DNA of 27,741 bases from a virus (Duplodnaviria; Caudoviricetes): IMG/VR virus record IMGVR_UViG_3300012352_000233, positions 1 through 27,741 of that record; one strand, 5' to 3'. Made by a program: the position numbers and the translations under genes. This document shows, piece by piece, positions 1,729-23,697 of this stretch. Under the pieces are notes generated by a model. It was not told the DNA's origin. It ran no database searches and saw nothing but the letters and a program-made list of their open reading frames with translations. Numbering within the stretch: the first letter of the stretch is position 1; each line of letters starts with the position of its first letter.

Positions 1729-2205
1729 TTATTTGCTATTTGCTGACTTTAGTGCATCTATTTGGGCGGCTGCTTCTCTGTACTTCCCGTGGTTTTCGAT
1801 GTCGGTGGAGAGTACGGTAGCAAGGTCAACGGGGGCAATGAGGTTGTCAGTGCTTTGGGGATCTGAGGAGCTACCTGTGGCGGAGTCGTTGTACAGCCTG
1901 ATAAAGCCATAAGTGACGTTACAGTTAGGACTGCCCAAAGAATAGAGATTCTTGATTTGACGTTGGTAGTATGCATTCTTAGCCTGTTCTTGTCTTATTT
2001 GTTGAAAATATTCAGCCGCAGCAAGGTCAAATTTAGCCTTGTTTTCCGCCAGAGCTTGTTGATATACTTCTTTATCTTTAGCAATCTTTGCTTCATAGTA
2101 ATTAGTCCTGTATTTAGATCCGACATAAGCTCCGCCGCCAAAGGCGATAGTAACCGCTGCAAATAACGCAATCAAACCATTAAAGCCACTTAGTAACCAA
2201 CCCAT
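1729..2205 (-). CDS. Inner-membrane spanin (Rz-like)
   Basis: 158 aa; N-terminal TM helix then a predicted coiled-coil periplasmic region; immediately downstream of the endolysin; contains an embedded lipoprotein ORF. Confidence 0.8.
   Translation of the reverse strand: MGWLLSGFNGLIALFAAVTIAFGGGAYVGSKYRTNYYEAKIAKDKEVYQQALAENKAKFDLAAAEYFQQIRQEQAKNAYYQRQIKNLYSLGSPNCNVTYGFIRLYNDSATGSSSDPQSTDNLIAPVDLATVLSTDIENHGKYREAAAQIDALKSANSK
1758..1976 (-). CDS. Outer-membrane lipoprotein spanin (Rz1-like), embedded in the +1 frame of the i-spanin
   Basis: 72 aa; signal peptide ending in lipobox LSGC, then a Pro/Thr-rich mature region; fully nested in the +1 frame, as for lambda Rz/Rz1. Confidence 0.8.
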   Translation of the reverse strand: MHTTNVKSRISILWAVLTVTSLMALSGCTTTPPQVAPQIPKALTTSLPPLTLLPYSPPTSKTTGSTEKQPPK

Positions 2206-2667
2206 TTAGTCTCCAATACAGGTGTTATATTCTTGTTGTCTACGTTTAACTAATCCGGGGTAGACCTTACCGCCTGCTTGAGTCCACTTCAGAAGCTCTT
2301 TACAGGCTCCGTCATAATCTTTGTTATTTAGCTTCTTGACCAATGTTGATCTACAGAAAGCTCCTACACCTACGTTATAAGTAAAACTTGTGTATGCGTC
2401 GTACTCGCCTTGGGTGATTGGAACCTTAATGCACTGCACCATTCCCTTAGCGTGTTCTCCAGCACTTATTTCAAGCCTCTGTAGAGCCTCTAAACGGGTC
2501 ACAGTTGAGTCCATTGTAACTCCCTTGGTCTCCCCGTAGCCTACTGTAGGAACTCCTGTAACGTCTCGATAAGCCTTCTCACGGAACCCTTCATGTGAGG
2601 CGATACTAACGACTGTTAACGCACTGACTGTAAGGATTGCTGCATTACGTCTTATCTTCTCGTTCAT
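2206..2667 (-). CDS. Endolysin, GH24 phage lysozyme with probable N-terminal SAR domain
   Basis: Catalytic triad E-x8-D-x5-T (HEGFREKAYRDVTGVPTVGYG), 'FTYNVGVGAFCRSTL', 'GLVKRRQQE'; weakly hydrophobic Ala/Val/Ser-rich N-terminal segment. Confidence 0.93.
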   Translation of the reverse strand: MNEKIRRNAAILTVSALTVVSIASHEGFREKAYRDVTGVPTVGYGETKGVTMDSTVTRLEALQRLEISAGEHAKGMVQCIKVPITQGEYDAYTSFTYNVGVGAFCRSTLVKKLNNKDYDGACKELLKWTQAGGKVYPGLVKRRQQEYNTCIGD

Positions 2668-2867
2668 ATATCTTTTTGAGCTATTAAACGAGCTATAGAA
2701 GCTGCAATAATAGTAACGAAGGTTAAGGTAGCAAACGTATCTCTAGGGAACGAATCCCAGTACAGCGGGAGAACTGCTTCACAAGCCGTTAGAATAGCCG
2801 CTAAGAATATAAACTTTAGAGACCAAGACTTGCGAAGAATCTCTTTCCAATTCTCGTACAGCTTCAC
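2664..2867 (-). CDS. Holin/pinholin candidate
   Basis: 67 aa with two hydrophobic segments and a basic N-terminus; overlaps the endolysin start (ATGA). Confidence 0.7.
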   Translation of the reverse strand: MKLYENWKEILRKSWSLKFIFLAAILTACEAVLPLYWDSFPRDTFATLTFVTIIAASIARLIAQKDI

Positions 2868-3403: not shown

Positions 3404-4348
3404 TTATGCTGTAAATGTACCGGATGAAGTGAATACGTGAATAGTGTTACCACCAGCAGATGTAATAGTACCGCCTGTACCACGTTGCGAGCCTGCGTAA
3501 GAAATAATAATTATTCCTGATCCACCTGCGCCTGATGTACCTGCGTTTCCAGAACCACCACCGCCTGATCCAGTGTTTACAACACCACTACCAGCGGTTC
3601 CTGCTGCATTACCAGTTCCGCCAATTCCTGAGCCACCTGCACCTGATGCTCCTCCTGCTGCTTGAGACGCAGATCCTCCACCGCCTCCAGCATAAGTTAC
3701 AGATGCTCCAGAAATAGTGGAAGTATATCCAACACCACCTGCCCCTCCGTTCACACCAGAAGCATAAACACCTGCACCGCCTCCGCCGCCACCGCCTCCT
3801 CCAGCAGAGCTTCCTGCATTACTTGTTCCGTTTCCTCCGGCATAGCCTTGACCTGATGTTCCTGCTAATCCAGTGGTATAGACATAACCACTACCGCCGC
3901 CTCCGGAGCCACCGATTGAGCCTGCTTGGTCATTTCCGCCGCCAGCTCCCCCGCCAACCGCTGCTGTGACTCCTGTAAAACTGCTGCTTGATCCCTGACT
4001 TCCGGGTGCGCTGTTTTTAGCAGGTGCTCCAGCGCCTACCGTAACAGTGTAAGATGTACTACCAGTAACTGTAGTTGTTCCAGTGACAACACCACCTGCT
4101 CCACCGCCTCCACCTACTTGCCACCATCCTGTTTGACCAGCACCACCTGATCCGCCACCAGCAACGATTAGATAAGAAATAGAATATGTTTGACTTGTAA
4201 GTGCAACCCAAACAAGACCACTCCATACTTCCCATTGATTAGTGGTAGTATTATAACCAGATTGTCCTAATGCAGGCGAAGAAGGTCTTCCAGCAGTAGT
4301 CCACTGAGCCGGTGTAATACCGTATGATCCGTCAATAATTACCGACAT
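3404..4348 (-). CDS. Glycine-rich tail adhesin-like protein, paralogue 3
   Basis: 314 aa; N-terminal 'TTAGRPSSP..G..GYN' module, 'YLIVAGGG', many GGGG runs, C-terminal 'GGSGIIIISY...HVFTSSGTFTA'. Confidence 0.75.
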   Translation of the reverse strand: MSVIIDGSYGITPAQWTTAGRPSSPALGQSGYNTTTNQWEVWSGLVWVALTSQTYSISYLIVAGGGSGGAGQTGWWQVGGGGGAGGVVTGTTTVTGSTSYTVTVGAGAPAKNSAPGSQGSSSSFTGVTAAVGGGAGGGNDQAGSIGGSGGGGSGYVYTTGLAGTSGQGYAGGNGTSNAGSSAGGGGGGGGGAGVYASGVNGGAGGVGYTSTISGASVTYAGGGGGSASQAAGGASGAGGSGIGGTGNAAGTAGSGVVNTGSGGGGSGNAGTSGAGGSGIIIISYAGSQRGTGGTITSAGGNTIHVFTSSGTFTA

Positions 4349-4361
4349 GGTAATCCTTTAA

Positions 4362-4742
4362 TTAAACTGGAGTTGGAACAGAAACCCAAGACAGTGTAGC
4401 TTCGTCCCAAACATAAGGACCGCTTTCAGTTGGCATTGGTGTAGGAGCTTCCCAAGTCCATGTAGAAGTATTCAATGTCCATGATGGATAAGGTTGTGGT
4501 GCATAGAATACGTCATTCACGATGTCGTATGTGTAGCCGATACCAGCATAGTTAGCACGTAGTGCTTCACCGCCGTCAGGCTGACCATCAGCACCGTAGT
4601 GTACGTTACCACGAGTATTGTAAGAAGTTTGCTTCCACAATCCCGGTAATGTGCCGATGAAGTCAGCATCAGCAACGATGACTTCCTGTACGTAAAACTT
4701 TGTTGAATTGTCGGTTGATAAAACCTTAGCGAAATGTGCCAT
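4362..4742 (-). CDS. Putative tail-fibre-associated/assembly protein (126 aa, start MAHFAKV)
   Basis: Start corrected from the ORF track: AAAAGGAG RBS precedes ATG at 4742; Trp/Pro-rich C-terminus 'PQPYPSWTLN...WEAPTPMP...YVWDEATLSW' resembles tail-fibre assembly proteins. Confidence 0.65.
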   Translation of the reverse strand: MAHFAKVLSTDNSTKFYVQEVIVADADFIGTLPGLWKQTSYNTRGNVHYGADGQPDGGEALRANYAGIGYTYDIVNDVFYAPQPYPSWTLNTSTWTWEAPTPMPTESGPYVWDEATLSWVSVPTPV

Positions 4743-4756
4743 TGTTGTTGCTCCTT

Positions 4757-5716
4757 TTAAGCTGTAAATGTACCACCAGATGTAAATGTATGAAATGTGC
4801 TGCCACCAGAGGACGTAACAGTACCGCCTGATCCACGTTGCGAGCCCACGTATGAAATAATTACAACACCAGAACCGCCAGCAGCTCCATTGTAAACTCC
4901 ATCTTTCCAAGCTCCGCCACCGCCACCACCACCGGTGTTTGTTGATCCTGCGTTTCCGTTGCTTATTCTACCACCGTTTCCACCGCCAAAAACACCAGAA
5001 CCTGCTGATAGATCTCGATATGCTCCGCCACCGCCGCCGCCACAGACGTTGACTCCTAAATATGAAACCCCGTTACCTCCGGTTCCACCACCGCCACCAG
5101 TGTAGTTACCTCCGTTGGCAGCAGCACCTGCTCCGCCACCACCACCGTAAGGGTCTTGTCCAGCTCCACCGGTATACGAACTATTAGTTCCTGTTCCTGA
5201 ATTACCACCGCCTCGACTGTAGCCAGCACCGCCTCCAGTAGCAGTGACACCAAAACCAGATGAGCTAGAGCCAGAACCATTCCTTGCTCCGCCAGCCCCT
5301 ACAGTAATAGTAAACGTAGATGTAGGGACTACGGAAGTTGTCCCGTAACGATAACCACCACCTCCACCACCTCCTCCTTGGTCATCTCCACCACCACCGC
5401 CGCCTGCGACCACTAAATAACTAATTGAATATGAGCCAGCTTTAATCTCAACCCACGCACCACCAATGTATCCTTCTACGGCGTTTGTTGTAGTATTATA
5501 ACGAATCATTCCATTAGCAGGGCTACTAGGACGTTGCGCTGTAGTTCCTGATGGGATACCTAAGCCTTTTGTTGCAGCCGCAAACGATACGTTTTGACTA
5601 GAATCAATAGTCATTGCGGTGACACCACCTGTTTGTATTGCTAATACCCCTGACGTGTCAGGAATGACATTTAAACTTGTAGCACTTGTTGTACCAGCAT
5701 TAATAATTGTCGTCAT
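4757..5716 (-). CDS. Glycine-rich tail adhesin-like protein, paralogue 2
   Basis: 319 aa; 'PSGTTAQRPSSPANGMIRYN', 'YLVVAGGG', polyglycine runs, C-terminal 'GGSGVVIISY...HTFTSGGTFTA'. Confidence 0.75.
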   Translation of the reverse strand: MTTIINAGTTSATSLNVIPDTSGVLAIQTGGVTAMTIDSSQNVSFAAATKGLGIPSGTTAQRPSSPANGMIRYNTTTNAVEGYIGGAWVEIKAGSYSISYLVVAGGGGGGDDQGGGGGGGGYRYGTTSVVPTSTFTITVGAGGARNGSGSSSSGFGVTATGGGAGYSRGGGNSGTGTNSSYTGGAGQDPYGGGGGAGAAANGGNYTGGGGGTGGNGVSYLGVNVCGGGGGGAYRDLSAGSGVFGGGNGGRISNGNAGSTNTGGGGGGGAWKDGVYNGAAGGSGVVIISYVGSQRGSGGTVTSSGGSTFHTFTSGGTFTA

Positions 5717-6690
5717 GCTGTATAAGTTCCTGATGAAGTATATTTAATCACTGTATTACTTCCGTTTGTTGTTACTGTCGGAGACCCTGTAACGGTTCCT
5801 GTATATTTATCAGTGGGGACGGACAAGATAATTATTCCTGATCCACCTTGACCGGCTGTACTATTAACAGCTCCGCCGCCGCCTGATCCGGTATTTCCAG
5901 AAGCATTACTGCCTTGGAAATTACCACTTCCATCGTTTACGCCTCCGTTACCACCACCGTTTGAGCCGTAGCCTCTAGAAAGACCTCCACCGCCTCCACC
6001 GCCTGCGTAGGTCACTGAAGATCCTGTGATAGAGGTAGCTACTCCTCCACCACCGTTACCGCCAGTTCCTCCGGTCACGCTTTGTCCGTTTGCTCCGGCT
6101 CCAGCTCCACCGCCTCCGGCTGCGTTAGGTCCAGTTCCTCCTGTATATCCGTTGCCTGAACTACCGCCTGTTTGACCACTACCACTATTTCCTCCAACGG
6201 AAGTAATAGTTGTTATACCAAACCCTGCTACTGTACTACTGCTTCCGTTAGATCCACCTGATCCACCGGAGCCGATGGTAACGGTATAGGTAGAACTAGG
6301 ATATAACCCGACTGTACTTTCCAATACTTTACCTGCGCCGCCTCCGCCTCCGTAATTACCACCAGTAGATCCTGAGCCACCGCCACCAACCGCTACGTAT
6401 GCAATTGTATAAGTAGGTAAATTTTCTTTAACTACCGTCCAAGAACCAGCTAAATAAGTTTCTATAGCGTATATATCGCTATTATATCGAACACTGCCTT
6501 CTATAGGACTACTTGGACGCTGTGCTGTTGTTCCGCTTGGAAGCTGTAATGCGTCAGTTTTATTAAATGTTGTACTGGAATCTGCGTTAAAAGTAATTGC
6601 AGCAGTTCCGCCTGTTTGTAGCTGTAATGATCCGCTATTGTCAGGTGTGGTTACTAATCCAGTTGTATTAACATTAATGACTGATGCCAT
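5713..6690 (-). CDS. Glycine-rich tail adhesin-like protein, paralogue 1
   Basis: 325 aa; 'PSGTTAQRPSSPIEGSVRYN', 'YVAVGGGG', polyglycine runs, C-terminal 'GGSGIIILS...KYTSSGTYTA'. Confidence 0.75.
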   Translation of the reverse strand: MASVINVNTTGLVTTPDNSGSLQLQTGGTAAITFNADSSTTFNKTDALQLPSGTTAQRPSSPIEGSVRYNSDIYAIETYLAGSWTVVKENLPTYTIAYVAVGGGGSGSTGGNYGGGGGAGKVLESTVGLYPSSTYTVTIGSGGSGGSNGSSSTVAGFGITTITSVGGNSGSGQTGGSSGNGYTGGTGPNAAGGGGAGAGANGQSVTGGTGGNGGGGVATSITGSSVTYAGGGGGGGLSRGYGSNGGGNGGVNDGSGNFQGSNASGNTGSGGGGAVNSTAGQGGSGIIILSVPTDKYTGTVTGSPTVTTNGSNTVIKYTSSGTYTA

Positions 6691-19144: not shown

Positions 19145-20724
19145 GTAGTCAATTCATCAAGCATATTCCATGCGATAAGTGCGGATCAAGCGATGGTAAC
19201 TCCATCTACACCGATAACCATCAATACTGCCATGTGTGCAATAACTACATTGACGGAGATGGTATCGAAACTAAACAGAAAGTATCACCAATGAGGAATT
19301 TTACACACTATGACAATCTTCTTAGCAACTCTCTCCCTGATCGTGGTATTACTGCGTCTACTTGCGTAGCCTATGGAGTCAAAACAGATGATACGAAGCA
19401 TTATTACCCTTACTATGACGCTGATAATAGCCTTGCTGGTCTTAAAGTTCGTACTTGTGCAGACAAGTCCTTTTCTATACAAGGTGATTGGAAAGCAACA
19501 ACTTTATTTGGACAAAACAAGTTCGCCAAAGGCGGTAGGAATGTCACCATCCATGAGGGCGAATTAGACGCTCTAGCAGGCTTTCAGATGGCTGGTAGTA
19601 AGTATCCCCATGTGAGCGTTAAAAACGGCGCCAGTGCTGCTCTAAAGGACTGTAAAGCTGCTTATGAATGGTTAGATAGCTTTGAGTCAATTGTCATCTC
19701 TTTTGATGGCGATGAAGTAGGTCAAAAAGCTGCAAATGATGTTGCTGAGTTGTTCGGTAGCAAGTGTAAGATTATTAAGCATATGGAAGGTTTTAAGGAT
19801 GCCTGCGATTATCTCAAGTACGGAAAGCAAGCGGAATATACTTCTTTATGGTGGAATGCTGAACAATGGACTCCAGATGGAATTATTGCTGGTTCAACCT
19901 TGTGGGAGGAAGTTACCAAGCCTGTCGAGAAAAGTTTGGCTCTCTATCCTTGGGATGGTGTTAATGAACTTACCTATGGCATCAGACCCGGTGAGCTCAT
20001 CACAGTTACTGCTGGATCTGGACTAGGAAAGTCTCAATTCTTGCGTGAGATCCTTTGGCATCTTCTCAAGACTGCAGACGGCAATGTCGGATGTATGTTT
20101 ATGGAAGAGTCCGTGAGCAAGACTGCTAAGTCGATTATGTCGCTATATGCCAACAAGCCATTACACTTACCAACAACTCAGGTATCACAGGAGGAATTAA
20201 AAGATGCGTTCGATAATACTTTGGGCAGCGATAGGCTTTTCTTCTGGGATAACTTCGGCTCTACTGATATTGATAATGTCATTAACCGTATCCGGTATTT
20301 TGCCAAAGCTGCTGATTGCAAGTATATCTTTCTCGATCATATTTCCATGGTGGTTAGTTCTCAAGCTAATGGTGACGAACGTAAAGCAATCGATGAGTTA
20401 ATGACTAAGTTACGTATGCTTGTACAGGAGACTGGTGTTTGCTTGATCGCTGTATCGCACCTCAAGCGTCCTGAATCTAAAGGACATGAGGAAGGCGCTG
20501 CAACATCACTGAGTCAGTTACGTGGTTCAGGCTCTATTGCCCAGCTATCGGATATTGTTATTGGACTGGTTCGTAATGCTCAGGCTGATGACGCTATCGA
20601 ACGTAACACCACTAGGGTTAGTATTCTAAAGAATCGCTTTGCTGGACTTACAAGCCCACACTGTGCTTCACTTTTGTATAACAAGGATACAGGTCGTATG
20701 ATGGAGATTCGTGATGAACTTTAA
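19141..20724 (+). CDS. T7 gp4-like DNA primase-helicase
   Basis: Zn finger CDKC...CHVC, TOPRIM 'IHEGELDA' and 'FDGD', Walker A 'AGSGLGKS', 'FLDH', 'LRGSGSIAQLSD', 'LKNR'. Confidence 0.96.
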   Translation: MSSQFIKHIPCDKCGSSDGNSIYTDNHQYCHVCNNYIDGDGIETKQKVSPMRNFTHYDNLLSNSLPDRGITASTCVAYGVKTDDTKHYYPYYDADNSLAGLKVRTCADKSFSIQGDWKATTLFGQNKFAKGGRNVTIHEGELDALAGFQMAGSKYPHVSVKNGASAALKDCKAAYEWLDSFESIVISFDGDEVGQKAANDVAELFGSKCKIIKHMEGFKDACDYLKYGKQAEYTSLWWNAEQWTPDGIIAGSTLWEEVTKPVEKSLALYPWDGVNELTYGIRPGELITVTAGSGLGKSQFLREILWHLLKTADGNVGCMFMEESVSKTAKSIMSLYANKPLHLPTTQVSQEELKDAFDNTLGSDRLFFWDNFGSTDIDNVINRIRYFAKAADCKYIFLDHISMVVSSQANGDERKAIDELMTKLRMLVQETGVCLIAVSHLKRPESKGHEEGAATSLSQLRGSGSIAQLSDIVIGLVRNAQADDAIERNTTRVSILKNRFAGLTSPHCASLLYNKDTGRMMEIRDEL

Positions 20725-21857: not shown

Positions 21858-22051
21858 AGTGGACAGGTACAATCCTTTGTTTGATTGGTATTGGATTAAC
21901 CAGTCTAAACATCTACCCGATGAACATCTTCTTTGGGTTTGTCGGTAGTTTGTTGTGGTCTATTGCCGGACTGCGTCAAAAGGATTATGCCTTGTTCGTT
22001 GTCGAGTTTGTAGCAGTCTTGATGTATTTATATGGTATAATGATTCTATGA
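21854..22051 (+). CDS. Small three-TM membrane protein (half-PnuC/SemiSWEET-like architecture)
   Basis: GTG start overlapping the previous TGA; three hydrophobic helices in 65 aa. Confidence 0.6.
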   Translation: MKWTGTILCLIGIGLTSLNIYPMNIFFGFVGSLLWSIAGLRQKDYALFVVEFVAVLMYLYGIMIL

Positions 22052-23697
22052 AAATCGTTCTTGACATCGAAACCAACAGCACACACGATAAGATTTGGAT
22101 GTGTGTTACACGTAATATTGAAACAGATGAGGTAGTTGTATGGAAAGCAGCAAGTGGATTACAAAAGTATTTGGAAAGTTGCGATTTGATTATCATGCAC
22201 AACGGAATAAATTTCGATGCACCGGTACTGCGGAAGAACTGGAACGTCACGATGAAGTTGAGCCAAGTGTACGATACGCTGATCGCAAGCCGTCTACTGA
22301 ATCCAAGTCTAGAAGGCGGTCATAGCCTAGACGCATGGGGTCAACGATTAGGTTATCCTAAAGGTGACTTCAGCGACTGGGACGGTGGTTATTCTAAAGA
22401 GATGGAAGAATACTGCATACAAGACACCAAAGTAACTAGAGAAGTGTATATACATCTCATAACAGCATTTTGTATTAATAACTTTTCACAAAGGAGTATT
22501 GACCTTGAGCACAATGTACAAGCGATCATCACAAAGCAAGAAGAAAACGGCTTCAAACTCGATGAGCCTAAAGCTCTACAGTTATTGGCTGAACTTAAAA
22601 CTAAGCTGGACGTTATTCAAACTGAAATGCAAAGCATATTTCCTGCCAAAGTTGAATCAGGACGTATCAGCAAGCTCGGTAAGCCCCTCAAAGACATCGT
22701 CACGCCGTTCAACCCCGGCAGCCGTCAGCAAATCGCCGAGCGACTCATCGAAAAAGGCTGGAAGCCAACCAAGCACACGGAAAAAGGCAGCGTCATCGTC
22801 GACGAAGCAGTCCTCGCCACGCTCGACTTCCCGGAAGCCAAAACCTTAGCCGAGTACATGATGCTGCAAAAGCGGATTGGACAGATTGAGAGCTGGTTAG
22901 ACAGTCTTAAATCCGATGGACGTGTCCACGGTAGGGTTATCACAAACGGCGCTGTAACAGGTCGTATGACGCACATGAGTCCTAACATGGCTCAAGTACC
23001 TAATAGTGGTAGCCCTTACGGACATGAGTGTAGAGAACTTTGGACAGTAGAGAAAGGCAATGCGTTAGTTGGTATCGATGCTTCAGGGTTAGAACTTCGT
23101 ATGCTGGCTCACTACATGAACGATAATGCGTATACAAATGAAGTCGTATCGGGCGACATACACACGGCAAATCAAAAAGCTGCTGGACTCGAAACTAGGA
23201 ACCAAGCGAAGACGTTTATTTATGCATTCCTCTATGGCGCAGGAAGTGCCAAAATCGGGTCGATTGTCGGTGGCTCTGCGAAAGAAGGACAGAAACTTAT
23301 TGATTCTTTTCTACGCAACACACCCAAGCTCAAAGCACTACGAGAAAAGGTTGGTAGAATCTATCTGGAGAAGGGAAAACTACCGGGTCTTGATGGAAGG
23401 CAGCTACTCGTTCGCTCCGAGCATTCGGCACTCAACACGCTCCTCCAAGGTGCAGGTGCTATTGTCATGAAGCAAGCTTTAGTCATCCTCGATAAGAAGA
23501 TGAAGCTACAGAAGATTCCATTCAAGTTCGTGGCTAATGTACACGATGAGTGGCAGATTGAAGTACCTCAAGAGTTTGCTGAGAAGGTTGGTAATCTCGG
23601 TGTTAGATCGATTGAGGAAGCAGGTAAGGTGTTAGAGATGCGTTGTCCTCTAACTGGTGAATTTAAATGTGGTAACAATTGGAAGGAAACACACTAA
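22048..23697 (+). CDS. Family A DNA polymerase, T7 gp5-like (3'-5' exonuclease plus polymerase, 549 aa)
   Basis: Start corrected to MKIVLDIET (ExoI); 'HNGINFD', 'YCIQD', motif A 'DASGLELR', motif B 'RNQAKTFIYAFLYG', motif C 'NVHDE'. Confidence 0.97.
   Translation: MKIVLDIETNSTHDKIWMCVTRNIETDEVVVWKAASGLQKYLESCDLIIMHNGINFDAPVLRKNWNVTMKLSQVYDTLIASRLLNPSLEGGHSLDAWGQRLGYPKGDFSDWDGGYSKEMEEYCIQDTKVTREVYIHLITAFCINNFSQRSIDLEHNVQAIITKQEENGFKLDEPKALQLLAELKTKLDVIQTEMQSIFPAKVESGRISKLGKPLKDIVTPFNPGSRQQIAERLIEKGWKPTKHTEKGSVIVDEAVLATLDFPEAKTLAEYMMLQKRIGQIESWLDSLKSDGRVHGRVITNGAVTGRMTHMSPNMAQVPNSGSPYGHECRELWTVEKGNALVGIDASGLELRMLAHYMNDNAYTNEVVSGDIHTANQKAAGLETRNQAKTFIYAFLYGAGSAKIGSIVGGSAKEGQKLIDSFLRNTPKLKALREKVGRIYLEKGKLPGLDGRQLLVRSEHSALNTLLQGAGAIVMKQALVILDKKMKLQKIPFKFVANVHDEWQIEVPQEFAEKVGNLGVRSIEEAGKVLEMRCPLTGEFKCGNNWKETH
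22505..22849 (+). CDS. Candidate overprinted Ser/Lys-rich protein in the +1 frame of the polymerase (114 aa)
   Basis: AAGGAG (22491-22496) 8 nt before an in-frame TTG; open to TAG 22847; coincides with strongly skewed polymerase codon usage. Confidence 0.5.
   Translation: MSTMYKRSSQSKKKTASNSMSLKLYSYWLNLKLSWTLFKLKCKAYFLPKLNQDVSASSVSPSKTSSRRSTPAAVSKSPSDSSKKAGSQPSTRKKAASSSTKQSSPRSTSRKPKP

Follow-up and report, generated by a model that had tools for sequence, protein, structure and literature searches.

The window analysed here, 27,741 nucleotides long, comes from the genome of a podovirus-like phage. Its minus-strand arm carries structural and lysis genes, and its plus-strand arm is devoted to replication, with genes for a primase-helicase, a family A polymerase and nucleases. 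The lysis cassette (1729–2867, minus strand) is complete; it comprises a holin (2664–2867), an endolysin with a hydrophobic N-terminus (2206–2667), an Rz-like gene (1729–2205) and, nested in the latter, an ORF for an Rz1-like lipoprotein (1758–1976). A tandem run of three similar Gly-rich tail-type genes lies at 3404–6690 on the same strand. The close relatives of the phage are uncultured contigs, and no credible host emerged from genome contigs.

The DNA polymerase gene (22048–23697, plus strand) encodes a 549 aa protein of the T7-like family A, as identified by Pfam families PF00476 (DNA_pol_A) and PF01612 (3′–5′ exonuclease). T7 DNA polymerase is its top PDB match (E 1e-84); the nearest polymerases of cultured phages, those of Pelagibacter phages HTVC104P, HTVC115P and HTVC103P, are 51–52% identical to it. 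In T7 polymerase, the thumb insertion binds the processivity factor thioredoxin. The thumb insertion of the window polymerase (22615–22705) is about 50 residues shorter than that of T7 polymerase, so most of the thioredoxin-binding region seems to be absent. The polymerase frame is the ancestral frame and is host to the nested ORFs described below. For comparison, polymerase genes from IMG/VR and metagenome contigs were codon-aligned; after 124 duplicate, partial or broken hits had been dropped, the final set contained 265 unique genes. The ORF1 clade is defined as the sequences at least 65.5% identical to the window polymerase, a threshold set after a first look at the data. Relatives used in the stop tallies (44 representatives, 64 loci or 94 sequences) were chosen by identity and share ancestry, so that the tallies do not represent independent events. 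Quick or FastTree reconstructions were used for the trees, and support for the deep branches is weak.

Over the thumb region of the polymerase, the 60 codons at 22666–22845 (plus strand) form a C-rich, T-poor patch. A recount gave 34 codons ending in C, 12 in G, 12 in A and 2 in T, reproducing the C and T figures of the first-pass annotation, and all 14 Leu, Ile and Val codons are indeed CTC, ATC or GTC. T-ending codons are abundant in the window, as had been stated (2476 of 6788 codons across 28 genes); none of these genes shows a stronger trough of T-ending codons than the patch, and every 60-codon stretch of the other 27 has at least nine. The first-pass annotation held that the C-ending Leu, Ile and Val codons keep the +1 frame open. 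This does not follow, since CTT, ATT and GTT would be equally stop-free, and avoidance of T is thus not responsible for the open frame. What it does is exclude hydrophobic residues from the +1 product. The patch is the coding footprint of the tail of ORF1, which is rich in Ser, Lys, Pro and Thr and is predicted to be disordered (low pLDDT, no secondary structure).

ORF1 (22505–22849, plus strand) is a very probable +1-frame gene nested over the polymerase thumb; its product has 114 aa, a pI of 10.9, 25 Lys/Arg and 31 Ser residues. The positions reported for its AAGGAG motif, 8 nt before the TTG at 22505, and for its TAG stop codon at 22847 were confirmed. Of 20,000 synonymous shuffles made with the gene’s own codon usage, 0.09% contained a stop-free +1 run of at least 114 codons (P ~0.0009). 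Stop codons in the +1 frame are not scattered among the relatives, a check that the first-pass annotation had proposed: across polymerase codons 160–250, the frame is stop-free in 91 of 94 unique sequences and in 63 of 64 loci, both at 65.5% polymerase identity or more, and it is open in 34 of 36 metagenome sequences fetched after this threshold had been fixed. About 4–8 +1 stops per genome are expected across the ORF1 region; at codons 161–240, the 44 representatives contain 5 stops, compared with 181 expected. The avoidance in this region is specific to stops: xTA codons occur in 0 of 575 cases before A or G, where they would make a stop, and in 96 of 233 before C or T, as against 591 of 1293 and 193 of 507, respectively, in the rest of the gene. 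Likewise, xTG occurs before A in 0 of 157 cases in the ORF1 region versus 85 of 326 elsewhere in the gene. The three exceptions among the 94 sequences represent one lineage without ORF1, at 68–69% polymerase identity (L034/L195, L362 and L363); ORF1 is therefore either dispensable or younger than that split. The polymerase is present in all 127 representatives, and ORF1 with its Shine–Dalgarno (SD) sequence is confined to the lineage at 65.5% identity or above.

The SD sequence of ORF1, AAGGAG (22491–22496, plus strand), makes use of an AGG Arg codon of the polymerase. The SD sequence and a start codon are conserved in 90 of the 91 open relatives. The start is TTG at codon 153 in 52 of these, ATG at codon 144 in 24 and ATG at codon 155 in 14; the three types track three subtrees, and the spacing between the SD sequence and the start is 7–8 nt in the 63 loci listed. 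Among 26 dereplicated relatives with the start type of the window, the Arg codon is always AGG (background 14%) and the Leu codon always CTT (background 17%). The ATG at codon 144 is kept despite varying polymerase residues (ND in 7, HD in 3, DD in 2). When the pattern of an SD sequence plus a start codon was sought in 43 representatives, the three sites accounted for 39 occurrences and the whole remainder of the +1 frame for 10. The window’s own ORF1 start is a weak TTG.

Synonymous choices in the polymerase gene track the +1 protein, giving Ser in the tail and aromatic or aliphatic residues in the helix. Where the polymerase has a Leu, Ile, Val or Phe codon, Ser makes up 83% of the +1 residues in the tail (577 cases) but 11% in the helix (447 cases). 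Relative to a stop-free synonymous null, the observed and expected hydrophobic fractions are 0.19 and 0.39 in the N-terminus, 0.53 and 0.47 in the helix, and 0.14 and 0.38 in the tail; several core positions are fixed as hydrophobic. The hydrophobic fraction is as expected in 13 relatives without ORF1 and in three control regions. This selection on the type of the +1 residue explains the C-rich patch and its sharp edge. Synonymous variation, which the first-pass annotation had suggested examining for suppression, is lowered strongly in the helix and weakly in the tail. Synonymous divergence, measured over 26 independent pairs, amounts to 0.101 in the helix (64/636, against 741/3865 in controls), 0.144 in the whole of ORF1, 0.176 in the tail and 0.192 in the control, the tail lying below the control in 17 of the 26 pairs. 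Since the sequence of the tail is only weakly constrained, selection there acts on composition; the core is constrained in sequence and the tail mainly in composition. The Lys/Arg fraction of the tail (0.23, with 0.22 expected) is nearly what the polymerase frame forces, and basic charge is therefore weak evidence of selection. The conserved open frame, the conserved SD sequence and start, and the codon choice that follows the +1 protein support the nested gene proposed in the first-pass annotation; on this comparative evidence, ORF1 is very likely a separately translated gene, its product being made alongside the polymerase.

The core of the ORF1 product (residues 21–46, 22565–22642, plus strand) is an aromatic/aliphatic-basic segment, rich in Trp, Tyr, Phe and Leu with interspersed Lys, and is the most constrained part of the protein in both synonymous divergence and residue choice. 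It is also the sole confidently predicted helix; an AlphaFold2 model built with 49 sequences has one helix at residues 5–45, confident at residues 21–40 (pLDDT ~90), and the remainder is disordered. The description of this segment as amphipathic was not borne out, the helical moment being low (median 0.14) and the helix hydrophobic nearly all round. The core is too polar to span a membrane (19-residue Kyte–Doolittle maximum, median 0.79), and no segment of transmembrane (TM) grade is predicted in ORF1. It scores well for the membrane interface, its interfacial hydrophobicity being more favourable than the stop-free synonymous null in 38 of 46 relatives, significantly in 17 of 46. The net charge of the protein ranges from +19 to +25, which is suggestive of DNA binding. 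The tail had been called histone-H1-like, which holds as a likeness in composition and is not matched by any Pfam or PHROG family. A Pfam search with 49 ORF1 members gave no convincing family (best E 0.005, in one member), low-complexity sequences of this kind matching profiles poorly. ORF1 had no match in Pfam, PHROG or cultured phages and no usable match in the ESM Atlas, and its profile gave one match among PDB sequences, at E 0.8.

The earlier guess of a DNA-condensing or membrane-tethering protein fits the composition and the predicted structure. Very probably, ribosomes on the mRNA of the replication module initiate internally at the ORF1 SD sequence and produce the 114 aa protein beside the polymerase. 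The hydrophobic helix of this protein would grip the surface of the host inner membrane, the basic disordered tail would bind nucleic acid, and the protein would thereby hold phage DNA at the membrane, or compact it, during replication. The C-rich patch is the footprint of selection for a hydrophilic tail. Our preferred reading of the function, though at less than an even chance, is that ORF1 encodes such a monotopic membrane anchor with a nucleic-acid-binding tail, holding or compacting replicating phage DNA. Phage φ29 has a membrane-anchored, DNA-binding organiser of replication, p16.7. Protein p16.7 resembles the role proposed for ORF1 in combining a membrane anchor with a DNA-binding part and in being expressed with replication genes; it differs in its true TM anchor, its folded DNA-binding domain and its free-standing gene, and no homology between the two was found.

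Nearly as likely as the membrane anchor is a real gene whose helix docks on a protein, either of the phage replisome or a host target, with the tail adding affinity for DNA; the product could then be a processivity or accessory factor translated from the polymerase mRNA, or could be directed at a host defence, division or transcription protein. Being hydrophobic on most faces, the helix could equally be buried in a protein partner. A lone conserved helix within a disordered chain is a typical binding motif, and ORF1 resembles such motifs; the polymerase, moreover, is shortened by about 50 residues at the very insertion that holds the thioredoxin site of T7 polymerase. However, the sister lineage with a 68–69% identical polymerase has no ORF1, so the polymerase does not always need it. 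The sequence of the helix is also highly variable between subclades and yet keeps its aromatic and basic character, a pattern easier to reconcile with binding to lipid than with docking at a specific interface. Prediction of a complex between the polymerase and ORF1 residues 12–56 gave a score of 0.01 (mark 0.32), favouring neither binding nor non-binding.

A lysis or lysis-timing protein, comparable to the single-gene lysis (sgl) proteins that RNA phages encode in the +1 frame of their replicase genes, is an improbable identity for ORF1. The genetic layout is that of leviviral sgl: of 33 active candidates, 21 are embedded in the +1 frame of rep (Chamakura et al. 2020, PMC7693330). In addition, the hydrophobic segment of ORF1 has basic flanks, and in a sister lineage the polymerase gene harbours an overprinted ORF for a two-TM membrane protein. 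According to the same paper, leviviral sgl genes share further features with the present ORFs: they are small de novo genes with their own SD sequences, they lie wholly within a phage polymerase gene and in its +1 frame, and they have repeated independent origins, sometimes with more than one per gene in one genome. The host gene here is, in contrast, the family A DNA polymerase gene of a dsDNA phage, and the ORFs also cover its conserved thumb and fingers. The window already contains a holin, an endolysin and an Rz/Rz1-like spanin pair, and this full cassette makes a lysis role less likely; ORF1, moreover, is located in the replication module and, by the leviviral type of test, which looks for an SD sequence and a predicted TM domain, has the former but not the latter.

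Still less probable, and by a wide measure doubtful, is that the +1 frame is reached by ribosomal frameshifting, which would attach a basic tail to the exonuclease domain. The layout of influenza PA-X is comparable to an exonuclease domain with a frameshifted tail, and, as in prfB, SD-like motifs can stimulate +1 shifts. The open +1 frame does start right after the exonuclease domain, and the type-A site includes a CTT codon. However, a +1 stop lies one codon 5′ of the start codon in 19 of 46 representatives, and there is no slippery motif common to the three lineages, each of which has a start 7–8 nt past an SD sequence; a conserved shift-prone site of the PA-X/prfB type is absent at ORF1. 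In 38 of 46 relatives, the start region belongs to the quarter of the gene where folding is weakest; together with the upstream +1 stop, this favours initiation over frameshifting, and the frameshift-tail variant offered by the first-pass annotation is thus unlikely.

The absence of any second protein, with the patch being a graft from a higher-GC phage or an RNA or DNA signal, is barely credible: the patch has 58% GC in a window of 43% and leaves other frames open in the window too, yet T-ending codons are fewer and C-ending codons more numerous at this position in 46 of 46 relatives while G-ending codons fall (0.173, compared with 0.216) and Lys, Glu and Gln codons move to A (585:240, compared with 877:822), so the patch is not a high-GC graft and the recombination alternative fails; in addition, the codon bias reverses to T-rich under the hydrophobic helix, the RNA of the patch is no more stably folded than shuffled sequences (z +0.94), and an Rfam search gave no match. 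A scan of the plus strand at 21900–23100 found no promoter-like site, and readings of the patch as an RNA structure, promoter or terminator are rejected or unsupported by the folding, Rfam and promoter results. The +2 frame at 22683–22886 and an in-register antisense ORF at 22725–22988, both open in the window, are by-products, open in just 5 and 3 of 46 relatives, respectively.

Beyond ORF1, a scan of alternative frames found ORF2 and ORF3 in the same polymerase gene. ORF2 (23126–23470, plus strand) lies in the +1 frame over the polymerase fingers and encodes 114 aa with a pI of 11.2. Two stops are seen in 44 representatives, compared with about 200 expected; the frame is open in 46 of 47 clade representatives, and its ATG at polymerase codon 360 is present in 43 of 44. 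Synonymous divergence is 0.124 and falls below the control in 23 of 26 pairs. No SD sequence was found before ORF2 in the window’s clade. At 50.5–65.5% identity, the frame is open in 30 of 66 representatives, 20 with an SD sequence before an ATG at codon 364, and below 50.5% it is open in 1 of 13; the profile scores of distant ORF2 frames overlap those of closed relatives. The cultured pelagiphages HTVC104P and HTVC115P have the frame open, with an SD sequence, and unannotated in both. In the clade member L065, two stops break ORF2 (polymerase codons 400–430) and ORF1 and ORF3 are intact, a natural loss. The ORF2 product is predicted to adopt a compact α/β domain (pLDDT 77, pTM 0.68), a confidence that covariation in the polymerase frame could inflate. 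Foldseek comparison of the model with the PDB and BFVD gave nothing at E 0.001 or better, which does not prove a new fold; the best VIA Z was 4.3 (rmsd 4.5, 62 aligned), and the ESM Atlas gave no usable match. The best Pfam candidate, DUF3793, matched 8 of 41 members with E values no better than 0.002 and was not accepted.

ORF3 (22140–22325, plus strand) is a 61 aa ORF in the +2 frame over the exonuclease domain and is kept in part of the clade, being open in 44 of 64 covered loci. An SD-like GAGGT (22129–22133, plus strand) lies 6 nt before its ATG, and GAGG or GGAG is found upstream in the 27 representatives that keep ORF3; the synonymous signal is weak (15 of 26 pairs). The ORF3 frame is also open in some more distant relatives (L034, L055 and L095). 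ORF2 and ORF3 are likely to be further overprinted genes like ORF1. Together, the three nested ORFs occupy two frames and overlap 289 of the 549 codons of the polymerase, an essential enzyme of replication. No comparably long stop-free block was found in 13 other gene families, most with 3–22 representatives and two genes with too few relatives. The primase-helicase (19800–20340) shows mild +1 stop depletion at codons 221–300 (37 vs 97) and 361–400 (4 vs 31) in 20 representatives, with no clean open block.

Clade D, whose polymerases are 52–56% identical to that of the window, has a chain of three +1 ORFs at codons ~165–270, 289–363 and 364 to beyond 480. Clade D sequences, with these open frames of their own, are also among the outgroup of the 64-locus comparison and dilute it. 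The middle ORF (+1 frame; L203:2369–2587, L246:2366–2584, L146:3129–3347 and other clade D loci) covers the polymerase palm and encodes 69–74 aa with two TM-grade segments; its stop abuts the ATG of the next ORF in 16 of 16 representatives. Four of these two-TM proteins gave no convincing PHROG match; the protein is holin-like in shape. Homology between ORF1 and the thumb frame of clade D was not supported, this frame scoring 19–49 bits, like closed relatives (20–54 bits); members of the ORF1 clade score 132–168 bits, partly by construction. A joint clade of the ORF1 lineage and clade D was rejected on a quick tree (p-AU 0.0002). The absence of any likeness to ORF1 beyond what the polymerase imposes and the rejection of a joint clade suggest that the clade D thumb ORF and ORF1 arose independently over the same place. 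Five single distant polymerases (L240, L338, L331, L173 and L337) have unusually long open +1 or +2 runs, which may be overprints.

Influenza PB1-F2 is encoded by an overprinted frame within a viral polymerase gene. Rz1 in Rz and φX174 E in D are fully embedded, out-of-frame phage genes with their own starts. Unlike the present ORFs, these two are lysis genes inside lysis or scaffolding genes. In hepadnaviruses, the surface gene overlaps the polymerase gene (PMC8227390). The hepadnavirus and PB1-F2 cases resemble the present one in that a second frame of the polymerase gene specifies a protein that is unrelated to the polymerase and is membrane-associated or basic, and in that products of de novo genes tend to be disordered; they differ in belonging to small eukaryotic virus genomes and have no sequence relation to it. 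Annotated overlaps in dsDNA viruses are mostly 1–4 nt long (PMC8903798). De novo overprinted genes are described as lineage-restricted and often disordered (PMC3494269 and PMC8227390).

Searches with ORF1 profiles returned 4 and 10 proteins, of which, by inspection, most look like calls of this overlapping frame in other assemblies; two were chimeric-looking calls and one a weak match. No stand-alone homologue was found within the sensitivity of the search, so ORF1 probably arose de novo and is restricted to one lineage. Features by which PMC3494269 recognises de novo overprints are present here: the ancestral gene occurs in all representatives, ORF1 is restricted to a subclade, there is selection in the second frame, and no homologue outside the overlap was found within search sensitivity. 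No report of ORF1–ORF3 was found in the literature searched, which consisted of titles and abstract openings and included few subscription papers; the words ‘overlap’ and ‘nested’ are absent from the main text of the preprint on HTVC103P-type phages (10.1101/2019.12.14.876532). Nested genes in viral polymerases are known; the present families, their density and their repeated origin in dsDNA phages are undescribed in the literature searched. We lean slightly towards the view that polA is a gene nursery in this widespread group of aquatic phages, with a hidden accessory operon spread over the exonuclease, thumb, palm and fingers. Lineages would have independently gained ORF1, ORF3, the two-TM protein and a second thumb ORF, with starts rebuilt several times; ORF2 would be the oldest, of de novo origin and with a new globular fold.

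Although this polymerase is abundant and serves as a marker gene, the nested proteins are nearly absent from databases (4–10 matches among billions), because gene callers discard nested frames. ORF2 is testable in cultured HTVC104P and HTVC115P. If the nested ORFs are translated, an essential DNA polymerase gene would be double-coding over about half of its length, and synonymous-rate and codon-usage analyses of these polA genes would be biased. Translation would also point to unknown phage accessory proteins and would provide a large natural series for the study of de novo protein birth in dsDNA phages, with sister lineages in which a gene is present or absent, start sites rebuilt in three ways and, for ORF2, a product predicted to fold.
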